A DNA stretch of 64,000 nt from Phoronis australis (lineage: Eukaryota; Animalia; Phoronida), in NCBI GenBank assembly GCA_002633005.1, contig NMRA01000282.1:271748-335747 (forward strand), written 5' to 3'. The notes beneath the pieces were generated by a model. That model did not search any database. It was not told the DNA's origin and saw only the letters and a program-made list of their open reading frames with translations. Of the stretch, positions 7,521 to 59,417 are shown piece after piece. How positions within the stretch are numbered: position 1 is the first letter of the stretch; each line of letters begins with the position of its first letter. The translations under genes were made by a program, and so were the position numbers.

Positions 7521-8026
7521 GGTATATATATTATGGTGTTTCCGGTTCCAGTTACTACGCTTTCAAAATACGCTGATGTAAAAACTGACTTCTACGGCTG
7601 TCTCAACCTGGTAAAGGCTATAATTTACAACATAAGAGGTGAATAAAGCAATTATATCTCACATCTATCTGATATGAGACCCAGACACGTCTGTTTTTAG
7701 GCTAAAAACTATCTTTCTTGTCACAAAGCTTGTGCCGGCGAAATCCAATATGGCGGCCCTAACTACACTGTCTGGTATCTGTAGTTAGTAGAGTGTTATC
7801 TGGTCAAGTAGGCCTCGCTGTAGTTATGCAGTTTTGATAATATATATAAGATTCAGTTCCTCTTTGTTATCTGGTGACCTTGACTTTGTCATAAAGCCTC
7901 AGATATCTGTAAGATTGTTCATTTTCAGGCCCGTATTTGTCTACGTCTTTGTCTCGAGATACAACACTGTAGTTCAAAGAACTGTTTGATATCACTCTAA
8001 TTTGACATGCGATTTGGCAACTGATT

Positions 8027-13600: not shown

Positions 13601-13963
13601 TTATTCAATGAGAATGTTAAAAAAGCTGAACATGTATTTAAAACGGGCATTATGCCAGAGCTGGTCGGCAAATGGTTTTCCAAAAATCCAGTCCAGCCTC
13701 AAGAGGTTGCTGCCATGCCATTGTCATCAAATGTGTATTGCTATTGTCGTAATGTGGAATATGGGGAAATGATCATCTGTTCAGATGAGTCTTGTCAAAT
13801 CAAGAAATTCCATGTTGCCTGTTTAAGACTGAAACGCATGCCTTCACGTAAATGGTGGTGTCCTGACTGAAGAAAGGTGAAACGTAGCGCAAAGAAAGCT
13901 GCTGACAAATTTAGTGACCCAGATCTTGGTGCGGTACTTGAATTGTTAGATCAACGTACGTGA
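10637..13963 (+). pseudogene. SWIM zinc finger - YqaJ-like exonuclease - PHD finger protein (ISL2EU accessory gene), about 4 exons
   Basis: Exons ~10637-10940 (KSYKSLDAYKY), ~11616-12180 (CTCKAGLGESCSH, SWIM), ~12399-12580 (ETREQA..WFKH.AG*ITAS), ~13198-13963 (GASPDG..EVKCPY; CYC..C..C..FH..C..WWCPD*). Frameshifts and stops present. Confidence 0.9.
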
Positions 13964-13995
13964 CATTTGTTCCTGATGCATCTCATTGAGTTCCA

Positions 13996-14608
13996 TTTTT
14001 GTGCACCCACACATTTATATATGGATGCATATTGTAGTCATTTTTGTATGGGCATCAGCAGCTTTTATCTCCTAAACTGCTAGCTAGGTTTTAATGAGAT
14101 TTGGTATATTTGTTCCTATGAAGCTGGCAAGGGACGACAACGACTATCAGGCTGATCTGGCTATCGCTGTCCCCCCTAGTGGCAACTTCGTTTTTTATGG
14201 TTACCTTTGTAATTTCATAATTCTTGGATATTCATTAAATTTTGGACAATAAGTTTCCATTTTGAAGGTGACGACAATTACATTTTTAAAATATCTGAAA
14301 CTTTTGCAGTGCCTAGTGGCTGTTGTGCGTTGTTGTGTCTATCTTTTTATCTGCCACAGTGCCTGAAGGATCATATCTGATGTGGAGGCCCCAGTTGATC
14401 ATACATTTATTCTACGTTGAAATCTGTACATTGGAGTTATTTAGCACTTTTTATTGGAGTGCGGCATTCTAGTTTCCGATGGAAATAGCATCTGTCAATA
14501 TTGGGATGGATTTTATGCAACCAACTGTCCAAGTTTCACATGAATAACATCCCTTGGAAGCACATTGTTTGCTTTGCTATTGTGGCCTTATTTCGAGTTG
14601 CTGTTGTT
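13996..14608 (+). mobile_element. Degenerate HINE/DINE-like element nested between the two ISL2EU genes
   Basis: 5' hairpin ttttt-gtgcacccac..tggatgcat, core ccccctagtggc and 3' gttgctgttgtt match the element at 36853-38376. Confidence 0.6.
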
Positions 14609-14941
14609 AATGACTCACAGAGCACGTGACTCTACGGTTTCAATCCATGATAAAGGGTTCTAATGATCTCATTTGCTTCATTACGGTTCCATTTTAGATA
14701 AACCATGTGTGATCAGACCATCGGTTGTGAAACGAATAATAATGCAGGGATCAGAATTATACCACATCTATCTGAACTATATATGTATATATATTTATAT
14801 ACTTTAATTACTTTCTTAAATAGATGAGCTCAACAGCTTGACATACTTGAGGAATGACAGTATACACTGGTATTTACACAGACATGCACTTTACTTGCAA
14901 CCTCAGTCATCTACCATGATACTAGTAGCGTGTTGTCATTG

Positions 14942-17144
14942 TCAGTCAAAAGGTACAATAGATGGACATGTGTTAGTTAGAGCACAGGCCACCTGTACAG
15001 CTTTGTCAAGTGTTGTGAGACTTGTTATTTCATCCGACTGTAACAGAGTTATTGGTGCGATTGACTGCAACATTGTATACTTCTGCCGGACCACACCAAT
15101 AACTCTTTCTACATGAATTCGAACTGAAGCAATTTCACGAGATTTCTCTACTTCGTACCTGGTTAGCTGGGCTTTTCTCTAGTAAATGCTGGGATCTCCA
15201 ATGACCACCATATAATCCCACTGACTCTCGAATGTCAAAACCTCTATCTGCTAAGACTACATCACCGGGACCGGGATTAATATTCGATAAAAAACCAGAG
15301 TTTTCTGTCAGGTGCATGTCACTGACACGGCCCCCCATCCCTTTGAAATGAAAATTATTGCACCCTGAGGAGCAATGCCAATTTAATACTTCATGGTATT
15401 GTGTGACTTGTAATTGGAATATGTGGTATTTCTGGCACCAAGGTCCTTTGACCGTTCAATGAATACTTCAAAGCAATCTATTACTACTACACATTTAGGA
15501 AATGTTTTCCTAAAACACACTGGGAGTGACTTTCGGAGACAGTGGCGTTCTGGCCAAAATATGTTTAGAGGGACAAGTCGACAGTGACAAACATCAATAA
15601 CACTAATAAATATGCGTGAAATTGTGGATGAACTTATGTTAAACCTGAACGCAAGATCCTGAATATTCAGATTAAGTCTTAGTCTCATCAAAGTGATGAC
15701 AAACTGCTGAAACTTTGTTACGGAGTCGAAGTTCCTCAAAAATTTTTTCACAACTGAAAAGTTAATCATTAACAACTGGTAGTTTGCTAAACCGGTACAA
15801 AACCGGACTTTTTCATCACAGTTCACAAAATCGTGTTCATCCAAACTCAAGTTTTTTTTCATTAAGTAACACGTTTTCTTGGCGCAAGCTCAAAACTTCA
15901 GCATTCAGGATTTCGTTTTGTCTGTGCAGATTCGAGATTTCGGCATTTGCAGAATTGACAACCTCCCAGTCACAAGGTACTGTGTTAACAGATTCTTGGT
16001 CATTTATTGTAGTCACTTCAGAGTAAGTAGTATCTTCGCCCTCGTCATTATTTCGAGATAGGTCCAACAGCTGTTTGCAACATCCCTTTCTCTTTTTCTG
16101 CTCGGCGACGCTAGTCTGAGTTGCATCTTCGTTCAAATGCAGAGAGTGCTTGTTTTCTTTTCTCAACTTGGGCTGCAGAAGTGTGAGCAAACACACTGGG
16201 CATGTAGTCGGGACAAAGCTTGTCATCTGACTTCTTTCTTAGAAAATAATGCACCAATGAAACTATTCCCACATACTACATGTGCTAATGTGTGTTTGCG
16301 AATTGCGGAAATTAATAAAAACATGACAATGCAAAAAACAGAGGCCAGCCTTTAAAAAACAGTAATGAATGTGCTTACTTTAGCAGCTGATTAGTTCCAA
16401 ACTGCTATCGATAAATTATTTCAGTAATGATTACATGTGCTGAGAATACACATGTGAATTACAAGAAGCATCCAAGAGAAAAATTTCAGGTCAATGTTTC
16501 TCTTTACTACTCCAGGGAACAATATTCCTGGGTACGCCTTTTTACAATTGCAACAACTCGCGAAAGTTTACCGCTTAATTACATGTTATGAGGTTTGTAA
16601 AATTCGGTACACTAACTAGTTTTCAGAAGTAAAGCAAATAAGTAAAATACACGGAGGAACAGAGAAGTGTCAACAAAGAAAGGCACGGACAAGTTTTAAA
16701 TCGTCTTTTAAGTTTAGGATTCCACATATTAACTTTTACGACATTAATCGGAACTTAAACCTGGGCTTGCCTTCAGTGATATGACAAATATGGCGCCCTA
16801 GCTTATAATCTAGTAGAAGCCTGGTCGGACAATGAGGAGTCTCGAAGAACCAAAGACAACGGCAGAAATATTAACTAATTATGCAAAACTGAGACAGGGT
16901 GGAAGCGGTGGAAGCTTCTAGTCACGATAAACTCATCGATTACAATAATATTATTTACCTGATTGAAATGTGCGCTACAGAGCCTAGAGTACGGTGTAGG
17001 AGTCCAGTTCTGACGACTCACTGCTGAAATCCACCTATTTCGTCGATCTGGCTCAGAATTTACACTAGGGAATCTATAAAACGACAAATTCTTGTCCCTG
17101 GACTGGTTGTTGCTGCAACCTACCGCCACACAATAAATAGGCAT
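14942..17144 (-). pseudogene. THAP - HTH - DDE_Tnp_4 (Harbinger/ISL2EU) transposase, 2 exons
   Basis: Exon 1 16959-17144 MPIYCVAVGCSN..FYRFP..W..LCSAHF. Exon 2 from ~16238 contains [52 protein letters not shown] and ends CPSIVPFD*. Frameshifted. Confidence 0.92.
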
Positions 17145-18745
17145 GACTAAAGAAATCGAGGAAAACAAACACAAGCGTGCAACAACAACGACAGCTGGAC
17201 GTTTCTACACGTCCAACATGGTGAACACACAAAGTGATGACATCACTTGAAATACCTTAATATGGTCAAATTCATCGGCTATGCGCCGTACTTTATGAAT
17301 TGCGTGCCAGTACCTCTCAGATTTTCTACTTAGGGGTTAGAACGCCTGAATTATGAACATAGTAATTTCTACTATGCATACACCACAAGGCATGGGGATA
17401 TAATAATGTTGATCCATTGAAATCTATTTCTATGAGTATGTGGCAGCACCTCAATTGCCATATACTTCAGACCTGTTTCAAAAAGCTGAAGTCCAAATTC
17501 CTGACTAATACAATGCAGAAAGCAAAGCAGCTATTATTTAACTGAAGTATGCAAAGAGTTGGCTTCTAAGAAGGAAACTGGCAGTTCAGGAAGAGTCCTC
17601 ATTTCCATCTGATGGCATGGCTACAACTAATGTGAGAGCTAGTCTTTGAAGGAATGCATTTGTCCTAGCTGGAAATGGGCCAAAATTCAATAACACCAAG
17701 TACACTCAGGAACAGCTTAATTAAGCAATTACACGAAGAAAATGGTGGGAGGGTAAGAGGTACATTGCCTGGTGGTGTCAAGGGCTGATCAACAAAGAAG
17801 TATTATGTCTTGTTTTACAAAAAAAGCAAGAGTCACCCAAGTCGTAAAGCAGACATTCAGGCGAAGGTGTCCAATAGTTGACTTAGAATTCATAAGATAT
17901 CCTATGTCAAAAAGAAAGCATTCACATAAAAATCTCAAACCCAGAGAAAGACATTGCACAGTGAATGTTGCCATGTTTAATGCTATTCAGGATCGTGAAA
18001 AGCATCAAAATCTTAGTAGCATGATGTTTGAGTGGAAAACATTGTCACCTCAAAAAAGGCCACCTGAAAAAAATATATGAAATTTTCTGGTGGCGACTCC
18101 TGAGTGGAGATTGCTTTAAGGACAGTTGACATACTACATCATTACTGGAGGCAGGGGAGTTTGCAAAGTGTTTAAAGATGAGGAGGGGGGTTGGCTCTGG
18201 TGAGGTAATTAAAGACTGAACAGGAAAGTGGGTAGTCAGACGGTGAAGACAAGCTGGGTAAAAGTAACCTAGTTTATTTGACTGAACTAGACTCCATGCA
18301 TAGATATTTTACTCCATTACATGTATATATTTAAGTATTGTGTGGTTTGTATATTTTATCTAGTTCTCCATTGAGGATGTCTTATAATAAATAGATATTT
18401 TCCATCATCTTTAAGTTATTACATAAATTTTCTCCATTTCAGCTTTGTCACTCACCCACTATTGGCATGTGTTTATGACAGGATTTCAGGGGTTAATTAG
18501 CTTAGGTGTTTATTGTACATGTTTAGTTTAAAGTTATTAAAAAGTTCCCACCATGACATTGTCTACCAAAAATGAATTTTATTAATACATCTTAAGAGAT
18601 TTAATAGTTTTTAGTATACCTACTGCTTAGAAAAAGCCAAAAATTTAAAAAAAAAATTCTGTTCTACGTAACGGGTGGATCGTCTCCGCCATTGTTGAAC
18701 TAAGGAGTCGAGAGGAAAGCTCGTGGGTAGCTGCCTTTTTCAGTC

Positions 18746-24950: not shown

Positions 24951-25240
24951 TTACGGCAGTAGCTTTTTCCTGGTATGTTTACATTTGTTTGCGATGGCAT
25001 CCAAACACGTTTTCCACTCACTCTCGAAATCCAGAACTGAGTCTTTAAACTTAGCGTAGACACGAGACTTGATCTGCATAAGTTTCACAGTGTCCAGTTG
25101 TTGAAAATTACGATATCCCGTCGGTGTCGAGGATGCAAGCTCCTGCTGTGAGAAGGTCAAGTCACACAATCGCAGTGCATAACGTCGTGCAGTCAACGTA
25201 GTCGGTAAATGAGAACTCAACGCATCAGAAAAGTTAGGGA
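24951..25240 (-). CDS. BEN-domain exon A (phase-1 acceptor)
   Basis: Polypyrimidine..TTTCAG acceptor. Uninterrupted YALRLCDLTFSQQELASST.TG..QLD..KL..IK..V..F..W..C..AIANKCKHTR follows the BEN pattern. Ends at TAA, which overlaps a possible GTAAGT donor. Confidence 0.85.
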
Positions 25241-26981: not shown

Positions 26982-27268
26982 CTAAAATCGGCCTTTAGCC
27001 ATTTCTCTTCTAATATGTCGGCATTTTGCAGATATGGCATTCAGACAGGCTTTCCAAACGGTGTCAAAATTGGGGACTGACCCACCAAAGCGCCCTCGAA
27101 CTTTTGACTTTATTTCCTGTAGTTTGCTACTGTTTAAAGCCGGAGCGCCGCGGAAGCCTGTAACCGTCCCTGAGGCCAATTCCTCACGGCTAAACAGCCG
27201 GTCTGCTAGGATGCCTGCGTATCGTCTAGCGGCGTGTGATGGTGGTAATTTACCCACGACGGAGTTTG
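26982..27268 (-). CDS. BEN-domain exon B (phase-1 acceptor, terminal), inside the Tc1-type element
   Basis: ATTTTTCAG acceptor. Intact YAGILADRLFSREELASGTVTG..LNSSKLQEIK..WKACLNAISAKCRHIR. 40/80 aa identical to exon A without gaps. Confidence 0.85.
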
Positions 27269-35972: not shown

Positions 35973-36170
35973 GATCTGTCGCCGAGGTCGTTCCCACCAG
36001 CTTTGAGGTACATGATGGGGTAGCGTTTACTTGCACTGGAGGGGTACCCTGTGGTCCAGTTCCCATGGTGACTGGCACTGGCTGTATCTGTTTCATGTCC
36101 ACTAGTTGTTTGAGCAGACCTCTGATAGCACTGACATCATCTTCAAGACTGCTAGACTCCATGAGGATGG
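35973..36170 (-). CDS. Host gene L, last shared exon (phase 1-1), coiled-coil-like plus linker
   Basis: Acceptor ttttgtatcccag, donor GTAAGC. Encodes ILMESSSLEDDVSAIRGLLKQLVDMK..TTSATD. 198 nt with no stops. Confidence 0.75.
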
Positions 36171-36852
36171 CTGGGATACAAAAGGTGCAGTCGTATTATG
36201 TGACTACTTCGTACGGGTCAAGTCGAAATAAAAGCTAACACAAAGTAGGATCTTCTGAAATTGGCATGCATTGTATGTCTTAAAGCCAGAAAACACTGGA
36301 GATTGAGCAGTACTGATGCCACCTAATGTTTGGCAATGGAATCAAGTTTAATTCCAACCTGCAAGCAACCCTATTGCCTTCGGGAAGGACATGCAGATCA
36401 TCACCTCAGCAGGCCAACTGACTATTGTCTACAACACTCCTCAGAAAGACCTGGGGTGAAAAGTGACTCAAAAATACAAATCCTGGGGCTTGTGATATTG
36501 TAAAAAGTAAATAATCTTACTGTGTTTCAATCACTTGACTTATGATCAGAGTCTCAATTCTCTCAATCAAGTAAGCAACAATATAAGCAGTATTTACAAT
36601 ATCCAGAAACCTGGTCTTACTCTACACAACTATTTCCAAAAAAACTGGTTTAACCTCAACAGAATAAGGTACTAAGCCTCTGGAAATACCCAAAATTCCT
36701 TTAAGTAATGAGCCATTACTGCTTCACTGTGATGTGACAACAATTACGAAATACCTTCATTCAAGTATACAGGAAAGAGAGCGCAAGACAAAGTTACTGA
36801 CTTGAGCCTTGAGTCCCTTTCTATGAAACAGGCCCCACAAATACTCAACAAC

Positions 36853-38376
36853 AGCAACGCAGAGCGTTGAAATGCACCCACAATTGCACCGCATACGGTA
36901 TCCTTCTAGGGTTGTTTATTGGTACCATTAAGTGGCCAGTAGAGGGCATATATGTAGTATGTTGTACTCAGCAAAATGGAAAGGCATGGTCATTGTCTCC
37001 TCAATAGGCTAGGGGCAAAATGTGAGTAATCTTCATAATACAAGCACATCCTATACACCAGTTGCTTAAAGCACCACAGAAACATAGAATTAAAAACAAA
37101 TTTACCAACATACGAGATTAGCACAGCATTAGAATGCCAGAAACAAATTTCTACTTGGAACTTTTCCTTCACAGTCACGAAGTAACACAAAGTATACACC
37201 TGAAGACCTATGAAAATACAGAGGTCAATGTAAAATACTAAAATTGCCACTAGAGGCAAACACTAAAATTGCCACTAGAGGCATACCGGTAGTCAGAATC
37301 ATCCTAAAGTCGTCATCGTCCGTTGTCAACATCACATAAATACACTTGCTAAATTTAGTAAAGATCCTGCAAACGGTTTGGGAGATACAGCCATGGGCGC
37401 AAAAAAACAAAACTGCCACTAGGAGGCGCCACAGTAGTCCAAATCGTCTGAAAATCATTGTCAGCTGTCTTCCTTATAGTAAGCACATACACGCCAATTT
37501 TCACAATCATCCTTTGAGCGGTTTGGTTGATAGAGGGGTGGACGCAAAAATACAGACTCGAAAACAGTAAAAATGGCCACTAGGTGGCGCAAACTACGTC
37601 GAATCCATCTGAAAACAGTAGGATAGCGTCATCTCACTAATAGGTGCCTACATACCAAATTTCATGAAAATCCGTTCAATACTTTTGAAGATACAAAGGT
37701 AAGCGTAAAAAACTAAAATTGCCACTAGGGGGCACACCGGTAGTCGGATCCGACCAAAAGTCGTCATCTTCCGTTGTTAACATCATATAAATATACTTAC
37801 ACAATTTGTAAAGATCCTGCGAACGGTTTAGGAGATACAGCCATAGGCGCAAAAAAACAAAACTGCCACTAGGAGGCGCCACAGTAGTCGAAATCGTCGG
37901 AAAATCATCGTCAACCATCCTCTACATAGTAAGCATATACATGCCAATTTTCACAATCATCCTTTGAGCGGTTTGGTTGATAGAGGGGTGGAAGCACAAA
38001 AACAGACTCGAAAACACTAAAAACGGCCACTAGGTGGCGCAAACTATGTCGAATCCATCTGAAAACGGCAGGATAGCATTATCTCACTAATAGGTGCCTA
38101 CATACCAAATTTCATGAAAATTCGTTCAGGACTTTTGAAGATACAAAGGTAACCGTAAAAAACTTAAATTGCTACTAGGGGGCACACCGGTAGTCGAATC
38201 CGTCCGAAAGTTCGCACATGCCGTCCCATTCATGAATGGAACATATGTGCCAAATTTCATGAACGTATGTCAAAGGGTTTTGGAGATAGAGCAGCGGACG
38301 CCGCCCGGATGGATGGACGGATGGACAGAGATGACGGCATAATGCGTCCACATATAAATATGTGGGCGCATAAAAA
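36853..38376 (-). mobile_element. HINE/DINE-1-like non-autonomous Helentron with central tandem repeats
   Basis: 5' T-run plus hairpin atgcgcccaca..tgtggacgcat, a GTCC/ATCC microsatellite, 144-161-bp subunits in a 450-bp higher-order repeat, a 3' subTIR tgtgggtgcat and the palindrome caacgc..gcgttg. Confidence 0.85.
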
Positions 38377-39498
38377 GTCAAGACCACATTTATTACTGTA
38401 AGAGATCAAAAGTTGGTATTCTTGACATCAGTGCCCTGGGTTTAATATTTGAACTCGGACTTGACAATCAACCAATAGCATACCGTATGATTCAAGTACA
38501 AATTTATACGAAACGTAGGATTCAACTGGTCAAGTTTCGAGTACTTAAGAGAATAAACCCCAGTCCCAGAAGTCGTCAGTTAAAAGTATGATGCTCCTTT
38601 ACAAAATTTTCAAAAAACACCTAAAACATACAAACCTTTTGTTACTTGCGTCTTGGAGGTAGAACTTTCATTTGGCAAAGGGTTACTGAGAGATCTATGA
38701 AGAGAGATCTACAATGAGACATATGGACACAAACCAACATCCTTAAGTATTATTGTGCAACGTTTCTGGCCTTTCTTTTCATCACAAATATAACTTTTCA
38801 GTTACTCATGAAGCACATCAACTACCAACACTTTAAACACTCTCATGAGATGAGTCTCCAAAATGACCTGGAGTCGTTTCATTAAACTGACTTAAGACTT
38901 AGAACGAAATTTAGTCTTTTGCTCACAGTTCACGATTGTTGAAAACAGGTTTAGCCAAGTAATTATGATTGCATCACAGTCTAGAAATAAATTATAGAAA
39001 TCATCAGTTACTAGTAAATTTGTGTATATTCTCAGAAACTTTCCACTTGAGCTTAAGTGAGATATCAGTGCCAGATAAACCATTAAACTAATTAAGCTCA
39101 GGGGCACCACACAACATAGAGGGAGGGGTGGAAGTTGTGCCAACCGGAGGAAGAATTGGATTGGGTCCCGAGAAACCTTATTCTGTCACTGAAGGTGATG
39201 TTCAGGAGAGCAAAATACCTGGCACTCTAACCTAGAAGGTAGCATCTCCGTGTTTATTATAGAGCTTCGATATTCATGAAAAACCAGTATGGGACAACAA
39301 TGCAAACTCACTTTGTCAAAGAATATTTTACCTCATTATCAACACTGTAGTGCAGCCGTATTCAAACACACTGTGCGCTCTAGCTTTTGGAAAACAATTT
39401 CAGTCACTGTTTTCATTCAAATTTGAAGCAACTTAAATGAACAAAGCCAGGTTGACATGAATCAACCAATCGTTGAGGTTGCTAGGAAACCGACTCAC

Positions 39499-40114
39499 TC
39501 ATTGGCTGTTAGTGGAGTATCCAGGTTGCGGTCACCACGCAGTGCTGGGGCCCTCCACCACAACTCTTCCTCAAGTGAAGTCTCCCCACCGCTCTCCTCT
39601 GAGCAGCCTTCCACAGGCTCTACCTTCACAACACTCATGCACAACGATGGTTGCGCCATCATCGACGCCTCGCCAGAATCCAGCTCTTTTTCTCTAGCCT
39701 TATTCACATCCGCAGTAAGTTTCAGTCGTGGCGAGGGTGTGGCAAAACCATCATCTCCTTGAGAAATCTGTAAATTTTTTTCGCGTACGTCACATTCAGC
39801 CTGTGTCTCCTCCACGTCCTCCATACGGTCGGCAGCAGCACCCTCTTCAGTGTCTCCAACACAAGTGGTCTCTTTTTCAGGTTCAATCAGAGACTCGCGG
39901 CAAGCACTTTTCAAATTCAGCTGCGTATTATTTGAGATCCTTTGAAACACACTTGGCGACTTCATGGCTTTGCTAGTCAGGAATGTTCGGCTAGCAGAAC
40001 GATACGGATGAATTCGATGGCCAACAGGGGAACAGGAGTCTGTACTTCTGTTCATTGATGTAGGCCACTTTGAAGGATGAATTACAGGTGATAGGGTGCT
40101 TTCTGTGGATTCAT
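39499..40114 (-). CDS. Host gene L, large low-complexity exon (phase 1-2)
   Basis: Acceptor ttcttctttag, donor GTGAGT. 616 nt open, containing HPSKWP, RIHPY and VKVEP. Confidence 0.8.
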
Positions 40115-40125
40115 CTAAAGAAGAA

Positions 40126-41313
40126 TAATAATCAATTAGCTAAGGGCAACAGAATTGGAAACAGGTATTTTGTTCCATTACTTTTTGGCTAACTTTATAA
40201 ATCCTTGTTACAGTATTCCTACATTATTTCGAGTATAATCTCACCTTCCACCACAAACAACAACTTCTCATTCAGACCAGTGTGCAAGCTATTGTTTGAG
40301 GCCAGGCTCTACAAGTTTGCTCGCCAGAGATTGATTTTACAGCGTAATTGGTATAAATTAAAAATTCACCTCGTCAACAGAACGCAGCCTCAACAACATA
40401 GAAGCAGAGTGCCAACATGCGTCCATGTACATTGCAAATGCCAAAAATATAAAGGGTACCAATTTTCCTAACAATTCTATGCACTAGAGAGAAGCGGTGG
40501 TGTACTTGAAAATGAGCCCACAGTGTACATTGGTAGTCATCCCAAAATTGGCAAAGATGCTCCTAGTAGATCTTAAAATTGACAGTAAGAAAACTAAAAT
40601 TAACGCAAAGGGGCACTGCAGCAGATGAATCCTTTCAGTAACTGATGCACGCTCTCCTGAATGAACAACATTTGTTATGCTTCGCCANAAAAAAAAAAAA
40701 AAAAAAAACTTGCTGTCAGAGCAACATACTTGGCGGAAGAATTCCGCCAAGTAATAATCAATTAGCTAAGGGCAACAGAATTGGAAACAAGTATTTTGTT
40801 CCATTACTTTTTGGCTAACTTTATAAATCCTTGTTACAGTATTCCTACATTATTTCGAGTATAATCTCACCTTCCACCACAAAAAACAACTTCTCATTCA
40901 GACCAGTGTGCAAGCTATTGTTTGAGGCCAGGCTCTACAAGTTTGCTCGCCAGAGATTGATTTTACAGTGTAATTGGTATAAATTAAAAATTCACCTCGT
41001 CAACAGAACGCAGCCTCAACAACATAGATGCAGAGTGCCAACATGCGTCCATGTACATTGCAAATGCCAAAAATATAAAGGGTGCCAATTTTCCTAACAA
41101 TTCTATGTACTAGAGAGAAGCGGTGGTGTACTTGAAAATGAGCCCACAGTGTACATTGGTAGTCATCCCAAAATTGGCAAAGATGCTCCTAGTAGATCTT
41201 AAAATTGACAGTAAGAAAACTAAAATTAACGCAAAGGGGCACTGCAGCAGATGAATCCTTTCAGTAACTGATGCACGCTCTCCTGAATGAACAACATTTG
41301 TTATGCTTTGCCA
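40126..41313. repeat. 562-bp tandem duplication (40126-40687 / 40752-41313) around an N gap
   Basis: Near-identical copies at offset 626. The N at 40688 is followed by poly(A) and a hairpin. Confidence 0.9.
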
Positions 41314-45579: not shown

Positions 45580-45886
45580 GAACCCAAACACACTAGGCAC
45601 TACGTTTGACTTCATACTCAGTCTCTTTTTCTGTCCTGGCATGAGCTGTTTGGTAAGGCGGCATTCGATCGTCAGTGAAATCACTGTAGACGAAATGCCG
45701 GCCACAAACACAGAGAAGTTTCACGGCCTCATACTTAATTGGTATTACGGCGTACTTTTCATTCTTCACTACCGCGAACCATTTCCAAAGCATTGTGTGC
45801 TCTAGAGGAAATCGAAAAAAAAGCGATATATCTGCTTTCCTCGTAGCTTCATAGTTCACACAAGCGGGAACGATACACCACTCCAT
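45580..45886 (-). pseudogene. THAP-domain relic
   Basis: WCIVPACVN..FFRFP..W..VCGRHF..DF, then after a frameshift NVVPSVF. Confidence 0.8.
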
Positions 45887-46369
45887 AGCGGCACTCACTC
45901 TGCAGAAGAACCACTGATGTCGCTGAGTTGTTTCTCACAGGTTAACGCGACACCTCTCGGCGAGGTGAGATTGACCGTATACGAGGTGATGTGGATATAG
46001 ACCGATTAAGACGGTATAAAAAGACGAATTAAATCGGGTGACATTCTCATTTAAGTTGTCCAAATAGCGGGATTAACCGCATTCCAAATATGGACTAGAT
46101 TGCACCCCGCAACAAGCAAAAAATCTGGACGAACACACGTTGTTGTCACGTGACGTTTGTTTTGAAGTTAGTCTGCAGTTGTGCGCCGAGTGAGCGAACA
46201 CGTGCTTGTCATCAGAGTTCATTTGCCAGAGTCAGTAGCAGGCCCACATAGTAACTTATATGTGGGCCCTAGCACGCACTTCTTGGCCAAGTGCTCATTA
46301 ACAGTGGTCAAGTTTCGATTCGCGGTTTTACGTACAAAAGTAATCTGCATTCCTGTTGAAGGAGAAGAG

Positions 46370-48477: not shown

Positions 48478-48629
48478 CTGCATCATCAGCCATCAGCAAC
48501 ATGTAGCCAAATAGTTTGTACTCAGCCATTTTGATGTCCAGCCAAGCTACAAAGTCCGGGATCTCATCTGGTGTTGCTTCCTGGACCATAGTGCAGAAGC
48601 ATGCCCGAAGGTTTCGCTTGAGGGTCACC
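48478..48629 (-). CDS. Host gene L, exon encoding the shared N-terminal domain (ends phase 1)
   Basis: Acceptor tttctgtttatag, donor GTGATG. NLRACFCTMVQEATPDEIPDFVAWLDIKMAEYKLFGYMLL is paralogous to 55521-55662. Start codon unresolved. Confidence 0.85.
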
Positions 48630-49026
48630 CTATAAACAGAAATTAGGTTATAACATGGGCAAAGGATGATTACAGCACTACATATCATAATACTTAAGTT
48701 CACACAACGAGTTACCCCAGAACAAGTTATTCCAAGAATGAGTTGTTGCTATTAATAGAATTATGGTATTTGAGCTGGGGACAATTTAGTACACGTGGAA
48801 AAACATACCACATCTTACTGAAGTAGGGTAACTTGTAACATAACTTATTTTAGAACAAGTTGCAGGGTGGATGTATATAATGACTATCGTCTCTACCCAG
48901 AGTAGTGACGATGAAGCTCCTATAAGGGCTCCATACGTCGGAAGCTTTTCGGCGAATTATGCGTCGCACTGACTAAAACATCAAAGCCACATTGTTATAA
49001 ATACCTTTTGCGCTTAGAGGGACACC

Positions 49027-50961
49027 CAGGGCTCGACATTAAAGGTAGTCCGACTGCCCGGGACAACCAATTTGTTGGTCCGGACAAGCTCATGGCCGAA
49101 CAGCTTGTCCGACAGGACAAGTCAATGAATTTTTCTGCGAACGTTCTCTGCACAAAATTAAGATTCCAAAACGTGCGCAACTCGCTTACTTTTCTGTGAC
49201 AATCAATCAGGTTTAGCGGAACCGGGATCTTGCCTTACTATGGCGGTAAAATACCCGTATTCTCATGGCCTTTACTGAAGGAGACACAACTCATGTTGGC
49301 ATGTACTGATCATGACTGAGACAGCACTGCAGAAGAACCAGCAATGCAGTTCTTGACAGTTATATCATGTCCGTGGCCAATCTTTCTGTGATTCCCCGTG
49401 ACAGTACACGAAGCATAACCAACCTGAGCATTGAAATAAGAAAAGACATGGTCCATTGTGACAAGCCAACTTGTGCTGCTTTTCCGTCTTGGTTAAACGC
49501 ATGTTTTTAATGACTTTCTCTCCAGACACCAACATGGAAGCGCCCAACCAAAGGCAAGAGCCCAAAAAATCAACTTGTCATTAGTGCAAGTCGAACATTT
49601 TGTCCATGTTCTACGTGGTCAAAAACTTTTTTTGTTTGAACTTTTGATTTGCCTGATGACTTTTACAAGATGTATTTTTGCTTCATTATTTTGACAGCTG
49701 ACCGAGTACCCCTATTGCCTAATAGTAGTATGGTCCGATTGTTGAGCACGTGCTTTGAACGACAGCGGTGTTGGCTTTGAACGACAGCGGTGTTGGCTTT
49801 GAACTCAAAAAGAAATATACAATGTATATAAAAATTAAAATGTTACATTGTTCAAAGTATTCAATAAGAAGACCTGTCAATCATTAGCTGTGCTTGGTTG
49901 CCTAAGTATCCAGGAAATCTTTATACAATCAAGTGCTTCCCTTAAAAATACACCGCAAACTAGTGGAGTCTTGCTTGATCTGTCTTTTCTCTCAAGAAAC
50001 TTTCCCTACTGAACACACGCCTACCTGTAGGAATACCTTAGTTCTAAGAGATGACCAGCAACGACTGAGGTACGTAAAAATCCAGTCACGCTCAGGATCA
50101 CGACGCCACTGTATCGTGTGCACAGGCTGTCGAAGTCTGTTACTTCAATCCCCCAACCTATATTTTAACTGATATGCTTGAAGTCCGACGTCAGTGTATC
50201 TCCGTTCAGGAGAAATCGGTCCTCCGTGCAATAAGCAACAACTCCTGACTTTTCCAAAATTTCGATTTTAACCGCCCATGCTCGGCTTACAGTCCACCCC
50301 GTTTTTTAGATTCCCAATTTAAGCGCCCAGGGCGGTAACGCGGACGAGTACGGTAGTTAGTTTGCATATGGTTTCAAGTCAAGGAGTTCTGATCTTGCAA
50401 CTGGTAACCAAACCAAAGGGCGCGAAATCACCAAGCAACAGTATGAAACTGATAAACGAAAACAGGAATTAATTCCGAAATGAAAGAAATATTTTGGCTG
50501 GTTACCGTACGGTTTGATAGCGACCAGAACTAAAATGTGTTGTCTCATGTGAAAAATACATCGACGCAAACAGTTCATCTGTTGCGTCTGGGTCAGATGT
50601 GTTCAGAATCGAGTCTTTGAAGTCATGAACAGTCGACGGCTCACTCACAGCATATAAAAATACATTATATAACTGAATTGAAAAGCCAGGGTAAAGTTGT
50701 AGCGTGTTCACTGGTGAAATCCAAATACAAATACCCACTTCAATAAACTTGTGCAAAATTTAAATGTCGTGTAATATATGCTCTTATACATGTTTATTGG
50801 GCTTGTGCTAACAGGTATAATGTGCGACATTCATATGCGTTTGAAAAGTATAATGTGAGTTTAATTATCTTTGGACAAGTGTCTTATGGGTCAGGACAAG
50901 TAAATTCCATTTCTACTTGTCCGACTGGACAAGTTAAAATAAAAGTTAATGTCGAGCCCTG
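49027..50961. mobile_element. hAT5-like non-autonomous element inserted in the left TIR of the Academ-like element
   Basis: Perfect 16-bp TIR CAGGGCTCGACATTAA. 5-bp TSD ACACC at 49022-26 and 50962-66. Confidence 0.85.
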
Positions 50962-51155
50962 ACACCTTAGGAGGTTGTTGATGTGTGTAATTCCTTCCAA
51001 CTCGAACAAATACTTTTTCTTCGAGCAGTCCCTCGTTCAGTTCCCAAAATCGGGAACTCACCATTTTTACACTGCGCACGCTCCAATTTTTACTACGCCC
51101 ACTAGGTGTTATGACGTCATGACCTCAATCTTTTAAATAGACTAAAGGTGAAAAC

Positions 51156-51594
51156 ATGCAGTCTTGTCAATCAAATGTTTATTTCCAAAATGCCACGCAA
51201 TGTCTTAGGCAGCCAAACAACAATTCAGTTCAGATTGACGTGGATGGTGAGAGACGTTGCATGAATTGTAACGAACCTTTTAAAAACCCAAAAGGTCTCC
51301 TAAGGACATTGAAATATGGAGGCATAACCACAGAGATGGCGTTACGCGAAAACTTAGGAATATTTGCTTCCCCCGCTAAAGACAAGAAGTCGATTTGTGA
51401 GAAAGCGCTGTGTAATACTTGTTTTTCTTGTCTCGGGGGAATTGTTAACACTCAAATAAAGCTTAAAGAGCAGAAAGAGATTTTCACATCCAGACGTCAG
51501 AACAAAACGTATCTCTTTGAAAAGGCAGAGGATTATAGAAAGGAAGAAACAAAAAGAAAACAGCAATCGAACAACCGGCAAGAAAAAAAAGAAA
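51156..51594 (+). pseudogene. ZAD-like C4 zinc-domain exon of the Academ-like element
   Basis: CMNC..~50 aa..LCNTCFSCL..IV..QIKLKEQK helix, with a probable donor at ~51595. No catalytic part present. Confidence 0.5.
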
Positions 51595-52999
51595 GGTACT
51601 TTTATGCAAAGTTGTTGTTTTCTGTAAGCTTCATTACGAGTTTCGTGTTAAATTACTGGCCACTGCGTGAGTTCCTGTTGTGGTATTTGTCCAGCCTCAA
51701 ACTGAGACCGTGTTTAAGAGGAAAAACGCATTACGCTATATAATTATTGAAATGGGTCCCAAATGCCTGTGAATATGGCAAAATGACAACCAAGCTGTTT
51801 TACTATTTGCGAATGGCGTTCCCAACAGAAATATATAAGGTAAATATCATGCGCGCACCCAGGGGGGCTTGGGAGGCTCAAACGAGCCCTCCCCATTTGG
51901 CGAAATGGGCAAAAAAGTCCGCCTCAGAGAAACAAGTGGACGGAGACTTCAGCTTTCAAAGTTTGCCGGTTAAGACCGCAGCTTCTGACCTTCGGCCTGG
52001 TCAAAAGAATGGGATCATATCCCTTGGCATGCGCAGACTGAAAATGGTAAGTTCCCGATTTTGGTAACTGAACAAGGGACTGCTCGAAGAAAAAGTTTGA
52101 AAACGGGAGTATTTGTTCGAGTTGAATGGATTTGAAAACATCGCCAACCTCCTAAGGTGTCCCTCTATGCATAAAAGGTATTTATAGCAACGTGACTTTG
52201 ATGTTTTAGTTAGTGCGAGGCATAATACGCCGAAAAGCTTCCGGCGTATGGAGCCCTTATAGGAGCTTCATTGTCTCTACTCTGGATAGACGATAGTCAC
52301 TATCTAGTGTGGATGCAGACACAGCGGAAGTAATTACCAGCTCTGTATGGACACTCAGCTGAACAGGGGCAAGTTCCTCGTGGGTGAATTGTTCTGGCAT
52401 TTCTTCTGCTAGCGAATATACTAGCGATAACGCTAATATTTTTGCCAGCATGTGAAGCACATACAAGTCAGCATTTGCAGCATAGCAATTTGTTTTTGCA
52501 TCAAATTATTGAAAACTTATAATATAAGCGTTAAAACTCAAATCAGTCCTATCTCCAACCCAGATCAAATTACACCACTTATATAGGACATAGTAATTGA
52601 AAAACTTTGAAATGCATGCAAGAACACTTAGTAAGATAAAAGTTAATAAAGTTAATTTTTTATGAACAAAACCTATTTACTTAAAATGTGCTATTTTCCA
52701 TAAAAGAGTAGGCCTACTTTAGGAAACTTCTACCGTATTTATTGGGAAATGCATTTAGCCTACCAGGGAAGCCGCCCACCACCACGTCACGGCTCTCACC
52801 ACTGGCCGCTGACACTGCACCAGACCTGTCACCAGTGGCAGTGCCGCTGACACTGAATCATCCACCACTACACAACTACAAGTTCAACCACAACGAAAAT
52901 GAACTGGTCTATAAACAAAGACAAAGTCTACAAGCCGTGCATTAGTAAACAACTGTAACGAACACAACCCTTCAGAAATAACAAGCAAGTCTGCAAAAC

Positions 53000-53240
53000 A
53001 AGAAAAATAATCACCCTGAATCTGTAGGCCTACCAACAGAACTCATCCCGCGGCTCTGACTGCGGGTGTTGTTCTTTAAACACGAGGCTACTTTGACGCC
53101 GCCTGGTGGTAGCAGCGCCGTTTGCACGCCATATTGAATTCTTTGTTTGCAACTGAGGCGGTGTCTTTGTTCAAAGTATTTTTAGTCGCGAAAATCGCCC
53201 GTTAGAGCGGTGATTATTTTCTGAAACTTGTGAGAGGTAA
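53000..53240. promoter_or_regulatory. Candidate bidirectional promoter with non-coding first exons
   Basis: CpG-richer patch between the divergent paralogs. Plus-strand donor GAG|GTAAGA at 53237, candidate minus-strand donor at 53014. CTCF-like CCACCAGGCGGCG on the minus strand at ~53097-53109. Confidence 0.6.
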
Positions 53241-53906
53241 GACAATTTTACTCATAGATAATTTTGCAAACAATTTTGGGCACTAAATACTCTTCCGAGT
53301 ATCTAAATAGTTAATAACTTTCATGAATGTTTTTCAACTATCATGATCATGATGATTGAATATTCATTATTCAAGCCAATGGCGTGATCTCAAATTCATG
53401 ATCACAAATACGTTTGTACGTGAGTTTCTATGCCACTGATTACTTATAGAATGTTTTCCATGTTTGTGCTGTGATTTGTAGGGAGATGTTTGACTATTAT
53501 TTTTGCTGGCGGGAGCACATTGCATTAATTTTCCCGTTTATGGTATTTATCCCGGTGATTATCTTTTGACGTCATGGCGCTGAGCGTTATCCCTCGTGGT
53601 TTGTTGAACCAATGAATGACCAGTTAAAAAGATCCCTCTTTTCTATTGGATGGCACATACTTTAGTTTCTGAATTCCACCAATGACAAAGTTATTCACTG
53701 TATTTAGCAAAGCTGAATGTGTTTTCAAAAGGTGCATCACTTGTGTATGAAACGTGTTCATTTTGTTCAAAATTTGACCTAAAACTGGTTACATTAAAAG
53801 GTACCTTTGCTTAGTTATGTTGTTACTGATTTTAAGGAAGCTCAGACATTGACTGATTGTTAATATGTGTTGTATTATTTTTATGTGAAACACATTTTTA
53901 TTGCTT

Positions 53907-54983
53907 TCATCTTGTCATTGTGTTGGCCATGGCCTGACGATCCTGACTGTCTGTGACTTGTCCACAGATTGGGCTGTGTAAATCTTTACTTATGTCTTTG
54001 TAATTAGGCGTTGAATGATGATGTTGAATTGATTATATTAATTCAGTTGATGAAATGGTGAAGTCACTTTTTTGTTTGACTTGGAATGTAAACCCCTCTT
54101 ATTATTTGATTTCCAATTCTTTTTTCGTCGCTGTTCTGTCATTATTTTGATGGGTCGCATAGAAAATTTTCCTGTTTTCGTTGGTCTTTCCAAGCCCTGA
54201 AGACCATTACAGTGGGGTGAAAACGTCTGAGGTTAGAGCATGCTTTTTGTTAGTAAAATTAGCTTGTGCGTATGCCTCATCTTGGAAAAGCAATGAAGAA
54301 TCTGGCCTAATAACTAGGGAGGACAATCAAAAAGTAGGTCACGGTGCTCCATATCTGCCTCCGTGTAAAACCCACGTCGGTAAATTACCCGATTTCAGAC
54401 TTCAAAGTTAACTATAAGACAATTTTGTGTTATAAATCGTTACCTTAGTCTTTATTTGTAAGTTTGTAATCTTTTTGTCTCAAATTATCGCTGATAAATC
54501 ATTTTTTGTAAGCTTTTTTTAGCGCACGATTTTCCGCCATGCGATCAACTTTCGAAAAAGTACCTCTTGTTCCTCCTATCCAANTCATCTTGTCATTGTG
54601 TTGGCCATGGCCTGACAATCCTGACTGTCTGTGACTTGTTCACAGATTGGGCTGTGTAAATCTTTACTTATGTCTTTGTAATTAGGCGTTGAATGATGAT
54701 GTTGAATTGATTATATTAATTCAGTTGATGAAATGGTGAAGTCACTTTTTTGTTTGACTTGGAATGTAAACCCCTCCAATTTCTTCTTTTTTCGTCGCTG
54801 TTCTGTCATTATTTTGATGGGTGGCATAGAAAATTTTCCTGTTTTCGTTGGTCTTTCCAAGCCCTGATGACCATTACAGTGGGGTGAAAACGTCTGAGGT
54901 TAGAGCATGCTTTTTGTTAGTAAAATTAGCTTGTGCGTATGCCTCATCTTGGAAAAGCAATGAAGAATCTGGCCTAATAACTA
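53907..54983. repeat. ~400-bp tandem duplication (53907-54316 / 54585-54983) around an N gap
   Basis: Near-identical copies. The first is followed at a TA by a TE-like terminus (gggaggacaatcaaaaagt) running to the N at 54584. Confidence 0.9.
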
Positions 54984-55520
54984 TGTAATCTTCAGTGATA
55001 GTTTTAGGAATGGATCCAGCATCATTGGTGCATAAAAATTCATTGTTTAACTCGGCCCTACATGTCACTAAAGCTGTCAGAATTTCATCAGATTTTGTCC
55101 TGAATAGCACTGCATTCAGCAACTGCAATCCAGAGCAGCAACAATTTCAATGACATGGAGTCTACCATTTTTCGAAAATGCAGATCTCAACTGTTTATTT
55201 ATGTGGTTATTTGAACTGAATTGCTGTTAACTGTTCAGACCAATAACTACTCATGTAACGTGCCGAGATAGCAGACAAAATCAGGCATAATGCCACCCCC
55301 AAGAATTAAATTGAAAAATAGCAGATGTTCGACTAACATGACCCTTAGGTCTTTAAAATTGGCCCCTAGTTTTGAGGCCGTTTGGGTCAACCAAATTGTG
55401 ACCATGTTTTTGTAAAATGATCTACGGCTCTTAAATTTTGTTTTGAAATGCAGTTGGTATTTGTCTTGGTTGTACTTATATTTTATTTCTTGTTTCAGCG
55501 TGTCACTATTGAACACAGAA

Positions 55521-55662
55521 ATGGGAGACATTGAACACTTGCGCCTTGGTTTCTGTTCACTAATCATGCAAGCAAAAGGGTCCCTAATCTCAAACTTTGT
55601 TGCCTGGTTGGATCTTAAAGTGGCCGAGTACAAAGTCTATGGACACATGATTTTGACAGACG
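55521..55662 (+). CDS. Host gene R, first coding exon with the shared N-terminal domain (ends phase 1)
   Basis: Acceptor tttcttgtttcag (exon starts 55499), ATG at 55521, MGDIEHLRLGFC..FVAWLDLKVAEYKVYGHMILTD, donor GTAAGA. Confidence 0.88.
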
Positions 55663-56036
55663 GTAAGAGTTTGTTGTCTGTGAGAATATTTTATGATTGG
55701 AGGGGAATGCTGGAACCTCGCATGGAGTCTTTCAAGTTTTAGTTGCTCAATTTGCCAAATGCAACCTTGATATGGTAACGCTTTTCATGTTTTTCAACTA
55801 ACTTGTTGATGATTTTGAACTTTTCGTGCATATTTTGGTATCTGAAGATAACTTCGCTGAGTTTTGGTCAGACAGTTAATTGTGCTATGAAAACGGAGAC
55901 ATGCAATGGTTCAATCTGAATCGGGGGGTACCTCATTTCTTAAAACTGTGCATTAATATTCTCATGAGTTCGTAGGGTTAGAGATGGTTACAAACTCTTC
56001 AAGTTGCAAAGACTTGTGGCATGAAATTTCATTTAA

Positions 56037-57129
56037 CTCTTTCAACTCCAAGTAACTGTCGGCCATTGTGTCCCTGAACCCCAAGTAACTTAGCACACAT
56101 GGGTTGAACTGAGGTGCTTGTTTTCAAAATTCCATAAACAATCCATTTATAATTGAATTTCAAAGTGTAATACACCAAAATGTAGAGAACAGAATGAACT
56201 TTATCTACAAATTCACCAAAATTAAAAAATCCCACTCTCTCACGTGATGCAGGTAAGTAACACCTGAAATGCCGGTGTTTGTTTGCCAATTTGCCAATTC
56301 AATGTATCGTTTAAAGAATAAAAATGATTTATGAGTAACAGTGTCGTCAATATTCTTCAGTAAAATTTCTTAAGATACATTTTCGATCATATTTCACATC
56401 TTCTATTTACATTTGAAGTTCATAAAGTGACTTAAATTAGGCGATCGTTAAGTTCAACGATTCAAATTTGTCCACTTCCGGTTGTGACTCGCGCTTCGTT
56501 TGGGCGTTCAAATTAATTACCCTGACAATTTCACCGAATATTTCATCAATATAGAAATTTTTAAAGTACTCAACTTGCTTATCAGAACCATCGTACACTC
56601 TAGAAGACTCCACATGTTCAGAAAATTTGCGAAGTTGTCGGAGTTCAACGGCGTTTGTTTGACCCAATTGCGAAATTCGCGACCTGTAAAGTTTTCCTCC
56701 GGTTCAAAGCCATGTAATTCAACTTCTTTGTCGTAATAGTCAACAAAATCTGGCCAGATATATAAAAATTCCTTTTTGGGTTATCTTGTATATTAATTAA
56801 GGAAAAAATATACAAATTATTGCCAATTTCGTCATTTGAAAAGTCCACGTCTGAATCGCCGTCAGCCGACATTTTGTTTTCGCGAGTCATCGATCTAAAT
56901 TCTTGGAAAACCCCTTCAATAACTCACGTTACCTCTCAGCAACGAATCAGAAAAGCTGTTAGAAATGAAGGTAAGGCTATATTTAAATTTGTGACGTACA
57001 CAAAAGAATTCCCCTAATCAACCAATCAAATATTCTGTTGCTTGGAAGTTCGGCATATCGTGAGACCGATAAAGCTTGAATGGAGGTAAGTTTCAGAGAC
57101 CGCTTAAGCGGTCTGCGGTGTTGAAAGGG
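56037..57129 (-). mobile_element. piggyBac deletion derivative in an intron of gene R
   Basis: TTAA flanks, TIR C(T/C)CTTTCAAC(T/A)CC, and transposase N-terminal relics MSADGDSDVDFS and EYFKNFYIDEIFGEIV..NLNA. Confidence 0.85.
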
Positions 57130-58270
57130 TTAATAGTCGCTTCCAAGTGTTTTTGAACTTTTTTGAGGTTTCGTTTGAATGATTTGCAATCAGAAAAGGT
57201 TTGTATTAAGTCTACAGTTTTTTAGCAAAACATAAAGTATATTTTTCCGATAGTCAGGGTTTGTGAAATAAGCAATGTATGCAGACTTTGTAGTTGACGG
57301 GTGTGCAAATTTAATGGAGTAACCAAGCATCGGCTACTTCCTGTGCTTGAATTTGATGACATGAGGCATGCCAACCTGAGTGTTAACAGAGCTTCAGTTA
57401 CTTTATCTTGTTCGGTTATAAAAGGACTTTACCCCATTTTTTGTGTAACGCTCTGTTGAGCAAGTGCCCCTGGGTCACTTATTTAGGACATCCCTTTAAC
57501 CTCATGTTTGTAACAGCAAGAGATATTCCTTACTGATTGTACTAATGAAGTACTGTATGTACTGTGCTCAGACCGCATTACTGCCTTTCTTGCAAAACCA
57601 ACTATCCGAATTGGGCGCAGCTGAAATTTCCCGCCATGTAATCTCGTGTGAGATAGGTGAGCTCATCAGTTCACTCTTTGCTTTTTTTGCATCGGGTGTT
57701 GAAAAGCTGATGCCTTGACATAGCTGAGTGATTAGGGGTTGCAAGCCCCAGTGTCTTAAGAAAAACTGCCAGCTTTGCAGCATTAGCACACGTGTGTGTG
57801 TAGTGTGATTGTTTACTAATTATTTAGTATTTCACTCATTTCTCACCTGGTTTTTGTTGGTGGGATGCTAAAGCATCATTTTTTTAAGTATTCAGGTCTT
57901 TGCTGTCGTCGGTGAAATTTTAATCGTTGCTGTATGTGAATAAGGAGTCACGTGGGTACCAGAAACCTGAACCCATCAAAATTTTAGCCGTATAAGTCGG
58001 TTTTCATTGCATTTTTTGTTCTTTTCAAATTAGAATTCAGCATGTTGTGGGTTTGTTTTTTAGTCACTGTAATTCATTTCACGGGTTTTTTACGCACTTT
58101 GTTGAATTAGTCTTGGAAACGTTCTTATTATATGCTTGGAATCTGCAATCTACTAAAACTTTGCTACTGAATCTTATTCAAGTTACTAATTTCATTCTTA
58201 AGTCTTAGTTGCATGTATTGAATTTAAATGTTTAATGGTTGTGTATTACTAATTCACCCTCCCGTTCCAG

Positions 58271-58937
58271 ATAACGAAAATGAGGGAACAGGGGCCTGGC
58301 AGTATACATCGCCTTCAGATCCCAGTAATTGGCCGCGCAATTTACCGGACAGCTACGGTGACCAGGCATCGAGTGGTCCGCCACCTCAGATGAGCCGCAG
58401 TTCAATCATGAACTTTCGTGGACGAAAGGCACCGTACGCTCGGCCGCGACCGGCGCGGCCGAAGAGCGTCACAAACTTGTTAAAAAATGCAATCTCCAGG
58501 GCCAAAAATACTTCTTCCAGTGCACAACTGACCTTACCTTCGTCACAACCCATCGCCGCTAACTCCACATCCATCAACACAACGACAGATCTCTCGCATA
58601 CTGTTACATCCTTAGACTCTTACGTTCAATCCTCCACAGCCCTCGAAACAGTCACAACAGCAAGCACATCCGGCCCGGAATCATCGTCGACACTCGTGAA
58701 ATCGGAACCTGGTTTAGAAATGACAGTTGAGGCAGCAAAATCAGAACATGACCCGGCAATGAATGAACAAGGAATGTGGTTATCAGATCCCGCCTCTGCA
58801 ACACTGATGGACCAAATGCCAGGCACATCTTTCTCTACACCCCCACCGCCCCGCGCGCCGAGGGGAAGGGGTCGTGGAAGGGGGGGATCCATGTCAGCTC
58901 CCCGTATGTCAACAGGTGCTGCTAGTAGTGCGATGGT
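58271..58937 (+). CDS. Host gene R, large low-complexity exon (phase 1-2)
   Basis: Acceptor cctcccgttccag, donor GTAAGT. 667 nt open, containing DPSNWP, RKAPY, VKSEP and an RGRGRGRG box. Confidence 0.88.
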
Positions 58938-59334
58938 GTAAGTATTAGTCTTCGTCCTTGTGGTGGTTATTAATATCTGCGCTCTCAGCAACCGTTCGGG
59001 ACGCTTTCATACAATACACTCAACTTGAAATAACTAGGTACCACTCTCATTCGGATTCCCACAATGCAGCTAGGGGTTAATGTCCTCCCTCTGTTAATAA
59101 ACGCGGAAGTGCCTAAAATTTTGAAAAGTAAGTCAGTCTTGAAATTCAGTTTTGTGCCTAAAATTTATTAAAATAACCCTTATTAGCTTGCTTATTTAGA
59201 TCTTAACGCATCATTCATTTGATAGCGCTTATTGTCATCCAGTAGTATGGTTATGCTTGGACCACCGATATCAATATAGTTTTTTTTACTAGTCTGTTAA
59301 TACTAGACTGATTCTGTTATGTTTTTATTTCCAG

Positions 59335-59417
59335 GGCCAATCCAGCTGCGAAACGCACTCCTAGTCGAGATTCAGTCAACGAGTTATTACAAACACATAC
59401 CATTCAAACAGAGTCAG
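59335..59417 (+). CDS. Host gene R, next exon (phase 2-1); the gene probably continues beyond the window
   Basis: Acceptor tttttatttccag, donor GTGGGT. 83 nt in frame, ANPAAKRTPSRDSVNELLQTHTIQTES. Confidence 0.8.

Follow-up and report, generated by a model that had tools for sequence, protein, structure and literature searches.

What do two genes have in common that stand head to head in the genome of the phoronid Phoronis australis, and what might the short domain with which both open do for its owners? The stretch in question ("the window") is 64,000 nucleotides (nt) long (GenBank assembly GCA_002633005.1, contig NMRA01000282.1, positions 271,748 to 335,747 of the forward strand; positions below are counted from its first letter) and consists of animal DNA of ∼40% GC that is rich in transposon remnants. 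We call the plus-strand gene R and the minus-strand gene L. We are highly confident that the N-terminal "head" domain of both, 45 residues long, represents a real, spliced, and uncatalogued domain family. On balance, our analysis leads us to favor the reading that it defines an invertebrate (at least mollusc-wide) transcription-factor family whose members likely bind one another.

How secure is the pair itself? The head exon of R (from the ATG at 55521 to the donor at 55662) and that of L (48629-48478) both translate as domain peptides. BLASTP aligns them with 20 of 41 identities and 32 of 41 positives without gaps, and all 20 identities fall within 39 ungapped columns (L7 to L45), as a preliminary description made from the sequence alone had reported. 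The local score is 118; 20,000 shuffles gave a mean of 19 and a maximum of 48, and the next best score among 2,154 six-frame segments of the window was 36. Codon position 2 is identical in 32 of the 39 columns and position 3 in 20, with different codons at 10 of the 20 shared residues, a pattern that fits the expectation for an old pair under protein-level constraint.

The layout that the preliminary description gave to the two genes also holds. Phase-1 GT donors close both head exons, the large exon that follows (667 nt in R, 616 nt in L) runs from phase 1 to phase 2 and in both genes completes GAT, the codon for D, and later phase-1 donors are found at 59417 in R and at 38636 and 35973 in L. 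The large exons do share PSxWP, R/H..PY, and VKxEP in otherwise unalignable sequence (best BLASTP E-value outside the motifs 0.083). Of 20,000 paired shuffles of these exons, none yielded PSxWP in both, none yielded VKxEP in both, and 0.4% yielded PY in both, a comparison to be read with the reservation that the motifs were picked after having been seen.

Are these exons spliced? The RNA evidence consists of three stranded runs from one study, of each of which about 18-19% was sampled. They were selected through the species label attached to a contig run; this run covers only 0.07 of the words, and two of its contig pieces match the window with 0 and 1 differences. Spliced transcripts were recovered for the exons of both genes (three joins in R, one in L). 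All three R joins are GT-AG on the expected strand, and the head exon of R ends where it had been placed at the outset; its start was set too late, as the exon begins at 55499 (55521 being the ATG), with a 5′ untranslated region (UTR) exon ahead. The R model comprises 297 residues up to the phase-1 donor at 59417. No DNA-binding tail of R was identified in the remaining 4.6 kb of the window, where a scan for phase-1 terminal exons after 59420, not exhaustive in that it missed one of the BEN exons described below (BEN exon 1), returned as its sole open frame of at least 55 amino acids (aa) one at 59533 (77 aa). We predict that the DNA-binding exon or exons of R lie beyond 59417.

How far does the domain reach beyond this locus? 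A hidden Markov model (HMM) built from the two sequences and run against 1.84 billion representatives gave 87 matches, 79 of them true after rescoring; the other eight (P0016, P0031, P0052, P0058, P0071, P0074, P0076, and P0084) rescored below 8 bits or had no score and were dropped as false. Of 25 long matches, 24 open with the domain, its first residue falling at positions 1-6. F11, F26, W29, D31, and G41 are invariant in all 75 aligned members, three further positions are near-invariant, and no cysteine column is conserved among the 75, as the four cysteines of a ZAD would be. Of the 75, 40 carry G directly behind the domain, which is typical of genomic read-through frames, and 25 carry D, as spliced proteins typically do. 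Among 25 metagenomic loci, many of them closely related copies from one subfamily, 24 have a phase-1 GT at a distance of 13 or 16 nt past G41, and no locus has a phase-0 GT there.

Named members come from bivalves, abalone, cephalopods, and a chiton, and so span four mollusc classes from chiton to octopus. Named relatives are all molluscan (58 named among 67 proteins) in a crowded search that cannot set the range of the family, and three additional named relatives are from Solemya. A word-based search with the single R peptide returned nothing, and a search with a 22-sequence divergent clade returned one protein among 7,998 scored candidates. In the tree, the window pair groups with 20 other rows, apart from a 53-row group that contains the named molluscs. 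R and L are sisters at 97/94, which is weak support given 47 columns and long branches; R is 47% identical to L and 53% identical to abalone or mussel members. In both age and breadth the family exceeds the R/L pair. With four mollusc classes and a further clade in it, the proposal of a lineage-specific family formed by inverted duplication is not supported in that form, whereas R and L themselves may be local duplicates, and an old local duplication is the likely origin of their head-to-head arrangement. Adjacent locus numbers of members in Solemya, Sinanodonta, Potamilus, and Mytilus, which speak to proximity and not to orientation, suggest that neighboring paralogues are common in the family.

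What follows the head domain? Long members carry a disordered, low-complexity linker with a SUMO consensus in 23 of 25 (8.6 expected), and, as a feature of the family, PxW directly after the domain in 13 of 25 (0.1 expected), in a region of low model confidence. The motif resembling a PY nuclear localization signal, which one long relative in 25 has against 1.4 expected, and PSxWP, which none of the 25 has, were rejected as family features; both are private to the R/L pair. The proteins then end in C2H2 zinc fingers (P0003, P0063, P0073, P0077, and P0090), an Ets domain (P0044, E 8e-32), a psq helix-turn-helix (HTH) plus C2H2 (P0160), a weak HTH (P0014), or a BEN-like domain (P0115, E 0.009), which supports the earlier suggestion of a nuclear factor family in the form of a transcription-factor family. 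Other tails are helical domains without a Pfam match, as in P0010, P0012, P0017, P0038, P0051, P0089, and P0165 (at E 0.01-0.1), and are candidate unnamed DNA-binding domains.

Some genes, in database gene models, swap these ends between isoforms. Mytilus californianus LOC127730005 has 10 annotated isoform clusters (P0135, P0132, P0129, P0072, P0124, P0118, P0123, P0117, P0120, and P0121) with 419 residues in common; a BEN-like body follows in four and a different helical body in the other six, and members of a set differ only in their last 24-55 residues. As modeled, this is a two-tier isoform system, with two DNA-binding bodies that each have alternative last segments bearing the C-terminal helix. 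Matching tails are present in M. galloprovincialis, M. edulis, and M. trossulus. Chiton isoforms X7 and X8 share 258 residues and end in paralogous domains, and P0008 and P0090, transcripts of one cluster, are near-identical over ∼330 residues before they diverge, one into a C2H2 array. Solved BEN complexes show the C-terminal helix 5 reading the major groove (PMC11472053), so the mussel isoform models would swap the recognition helix. The family has this layout: head domain first, a phase-1 exon end, a SUMO-site-rich low-complexity linker, and unrelated DNA-binding classes last.

Why should such a head self-associate? AlphaFold2 models the domain as a two-helix hairpin (helices 2-17 and 20-40, predicted local distance difference test score 91.6). 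A second member gives the same two helices, with disorder beyond about residue 41, and neither model contains strands. The conserved hydrophobic positions of helix 1, six in number, lie on one face (moment 0.40), and those of helix 2, 11 among 20, lie on two opposite faces (moment 0.05). As helix 2 is hydrophobic on two faces, a monomeric hairpin would leave one conserved face exposed; for this reason we infer that the domain binds a partner, and the multimerizing heads of lola and mod(mdg4) (PMC11426971) suggest by analogy that this is most likely another such hairpin. Helix 1 would cover one face of helix 2, the opposite face would be buried against a second hairpin, and the pairing would yield homo- or heterodimers that bring two DNA-binding tails together. 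Self-association is, on this analysis, likely. The head would then act as a BTB-like interaction module on lola-style transcription factors, gene L joining its constant part to either of two BEN exons and gene R to the exon or exons past 59417. In the BEN protein BANP, oligomerization tunes DNA selection (PMC11472053).

Does gene L have the tails that this requires? The arrays of phase-1 DNA-binding exons that had been anticipated behind gene R were found behind gene L instead, as two BEN exons in frame with it, that is, several same-phase terminal exons after one constant region, as in lola and mod(mdg4). The predicted L exons are all colinear on one strand (Table 1). Both BEN exons have a TTTTTCAG acceptor in phase 1, both are intact, and they share 40 of 91 residues (44%); the gathering cut-off of the Pfam BEN family (PF10523) is 23.2 bits, which exon 1 exceeds and exon 2 just misses. 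Apart from these two exons and the two head exons, the window yielded no copy of either domain. AATAAA lies 309 and 497 nt downstream of BEN exon 1, in whose bin the minus-strand RNA depth is 4.0/3.7/0.5 in the three runs. We predict, with fair confidence, that the constant part of L is spliced onto either BEN exon.

Table 1. Exons of genes R and L and the BEN exons predicted to end gene L (three values separated by slashes refer to the three RNA runs)
Feature	Position	Strand	Support
Gene R 5′ UTR exon	53157..53236 (start approximate)	+	Join 53236>55499, 29/20/22 reads, plus one contig; 5 molecules end at 53157 (one run)
Gene R exon with ATG 55521 and 45-aa head domain, phase-1 donor	55499..55662	+	Family HMM 71 bits
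Gene R large low-complexity exon (PSNWP, RGRKAPY, VKSEP, RG repeats), phase 1 to 2	58271..58937	+	Join 55662>58271, 30/17/19 reads; strand-specific depth 22-29
Gene R small exon, phase 2 to 1	59335..59417	+	Join 58937>59335, 14/15/16 reads
Gene L exon 1, head domain, phase-1 donor; upstream phase-2 exon required for start	48478..48629	-	Family HMM 64 bits
Gene L exon 2, large, low-complexity (PSKWP, HRIHPY, VKVEP), phase 1 to 2	39499..40114	-	Minus-strand RNA depth 5.1/3.2/1.6, none on opposite strand; frame check
Gene L exon 3, 59 nt, phase 2 to 1	38636..38694	-	Join 38636>36170, 7/8/3 reads; longest side 59 nt in all three runs fits acceptor 38694
Gene L exon 4, phase 1 to 1, coiled-coil-like heptad stretch, last constant exon seen	35973..36170	-	Acceptor from reads; donor predicted (GTAAGC)
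BEN terminal exon 1, phase-1 acceptor, own stop, predicted last exon of L	26982..27268	-	Pfam BEN 35.7 bits, E 9.8e-9; in frame with L, 436 aa
BEN terminal exon 2, phase-1 acceptor, own stop, predicted alternative last exon of L	24951..25240	-	Pfam BEN 22.2 bits; in frame with L, 437 aa

Two further features lie among the exons of gene L and the BEN exons. Between its exon 4 and the BEN exons, the minus-strand frames 30875-30760 and 31900-31440 are coiled-coil-like, resemble exon 4 by eye, and are possible extra or decayed cassettes. A repeat at 36850-38376, in an intron, has an internal 450-nt duplication and ∼800-fold minus-strand RNA cover, probably from other copies of the repeat.

Several points weigh against the picture of a self-associating, lola-style family. 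The two faces of helix 2, as modeled, would call for a partner and do not say which, and the invariant or near-invariant W29, D31, K38, and G41 would be just as well explained by docking on a conserved cofactor. The mollusc isoforms are database gene models whose reads were not checked, and the Ets and psq tails come from single "hypothetical" models that could be fused. In gene L, whose RNA support comes from the one study, the head exon has no ATG before helix 1, and seven candidate donors for the start lie upstream. No join of exon 1 to exon 2 (among 15 of 94 joints listed), of exon 2 to exon 3 (among the joints listed), or of exon 4 to either BEN exon (among 15 of 47 listed, at low depth) was seen. 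The first of these joins rests on splice signals and frame. As the listed joints come mostly from repeats, joins outside them count neither as shown nor as excluded. RNA depth over BEN exon 2 (0.5-0.8) is close to the intron background, and no AATAAA or ATTAAA lies within 1.5 kb of it.

The main rival is that the domain is a cofactor-docking module, for repression or activation, which recruits a conserved partner and not its own copy, as KRAB-A does with TRIM28. Such docking would suit the five invariant and three near-invariant residues, kept over at least four mollusc classes and including the polar D31, K33, and K38, as well as the size of ∼45 aa, the single exon with its phase-1 end, and the SUMO-site-rich linker; a KRAB profile found no match at E up to 1 in 50 members. 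We judge docking a real possibility, if on the unlikely side.

A second rival accepts the head domain and denies gene L its alternative tails: the BEN exons would be separate or decayed, or only exon 1 would be used, in a gene weakly expressed or decaying. Exons 1 to 4 of L stay open, without a stop, when joined to either BEN exon, the matched acceptors and the intact, related BEN frames count against this rival, and RNA over exon 2, exons 3 and 4, and BEN exon 1 lies on the L strand at similar depth. The absence of BEN joins from those listed and the low depth of BEN exon 2 do favor it, as do the branch of L, the longest in the tree (2.09), its domain exon without an ATG, and the transposon pieces in its introns. 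Taken together, we consider it improbable.

Could the domain be a known one in disguise? The preliminary description had called it an unrecognized helical domain, and no confident match to a known domain has emerged since. At E up to 1, each Pfam family matches two of 50 members at most, NCBIfam gives no domain match, and nothing in the PDB was found by sequence (profile best E 0.38) or by a discriminating fold. BTB is an alpha/beta domain of about 115 aa, and no BTB match occurs in the 50 members of this 45-aa, two-helix, strandless domain; for SRF-TF/MADS, a fold with a helix followed by a beta-hairpin, there is no Pfam match, there are no strands in the monomer models, and there is no entry among the 50 VIA rows listed. 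We found no description of the domain in a literature search outside whose coverage most subscription journals fall, and in which an unnamed domain is hard to find by word. That the domain is a strongly diverged part of a known fold (a MADS-type dimerization region, a BTB fragment, or BESS) or a transposon protein is very improbable: the window is full of transposon remnants and HMMER against Pfam misses remote homologues, yet the sequence searches above gave no confident match, MADS and BTB need strands that both models lack, and the family consists of spliced host genes whose tails have orthologs in other species.

The rest of the window is largely repetitive. The interval between R and L holds a 200-aa frame (51141-51743) that has two CxxC pairs and no Pfam match and is enclosed by nested inverted repeats of 135 nt (48892/52290) and 70 nt (51012/52096); the element at 48892-52290 is probably a DNA-transposon remnant. 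Near-identical direct duplications of ∼400-550 nt at 40126-41290 and 53907-54983, with a single N at each junction (40688 and 54584), are likely assembly gap overlaps. Transposon remnants at 8006-17204 and 45593-45934 include piggyBac-like DDE (PF13843), Harbinger-like DDE/HTH (PF13359 and PF13613), PHD, and two THAP frames, and positions 1-2089 are directly duplicated at 4239-6310 (4.2-kb spacing, 94-97% identity).

How does the family compare with known systems? KRAB, SCAN, ZAD, and BESS are short, lineage-restricted helical modules that mark expanded zinc-finger or MADF transcription-factor families, and hallmark head domains of this kind are TTK-BTB and ZAD in insects and KRAB and SCAN in vertebrates. 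The new domain resembles them as a short helical module on an expanded transcription-factor family. None of 50 members matches any of these four in Pfam, however, and the domain also lacks the conserved cysteines of ZAD, is much shorter than SCAN, and is N-terminal, unlike BESS. In the literature searched we found no comparable hallmark head domain described for molluscs and their relatives.

In layout, the closest parallels are Drosophila lola (17 of 20 isoforms with different C2H2 ends) and mod(mdg4) (at least 30 isoforms), which also combine a constant N-terminal domain, a low-complexity linker, and alternative C-terminal DNA-binding domains, their group likewise pairing one head type with several DNA-binding classes (PMC11426971). 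The same paper found TTK-type BTB in arthropods alone; neither Mollusca nor Annelida had any (PMC11426971). The new head, a 45-aa two-helix unit without a BTB match, is like TTK-BTB in layout and is not a BTB member, and nothing seen here points to trans-splicing or to hexamers. Vertebrate NACC1/2 (BTB-BEN) and BANP (coiled coil-BEN) resemble the predicted L products, in which an interaction region at the N-terminus is followed by a coiled-coil-like stretch and a single BEN domain at the C-terminus, and it is helix 5 that reads the major groove in this group, where the mussel isoforms differ in the matching C-terminal helix (PMC11472053). Unlike these proteins, the new family has a different head, carries BEN on what we predict to be interchangeable terminal exons, and also has non-BEN tails.

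What does the finding mean for these animals? The 45-residue handle unites proteins so far named "dentin sialophosphoprotein-like," "ZNF423," or "uncharacterized," and the family points to an independent origin of lola-style isoform diversification. A bolder view, which we offer tentatively, is that a substitute for BTB arose independently in molluscs and their relatives, in the form of a 45-residue hairpin for mix-and-match dimers, with alternative last exons that swap whole DNA-binding domains or only the recognition helix; this would be a combinatorial code more than 500 million years old, convergent with arthropod lola and mod(mdg4), and not yet described. As the mussel genes are modeled, what is exchanged can be as little as the predicted DNA-reading helix, and a specificity code thereby becomes directly testable.

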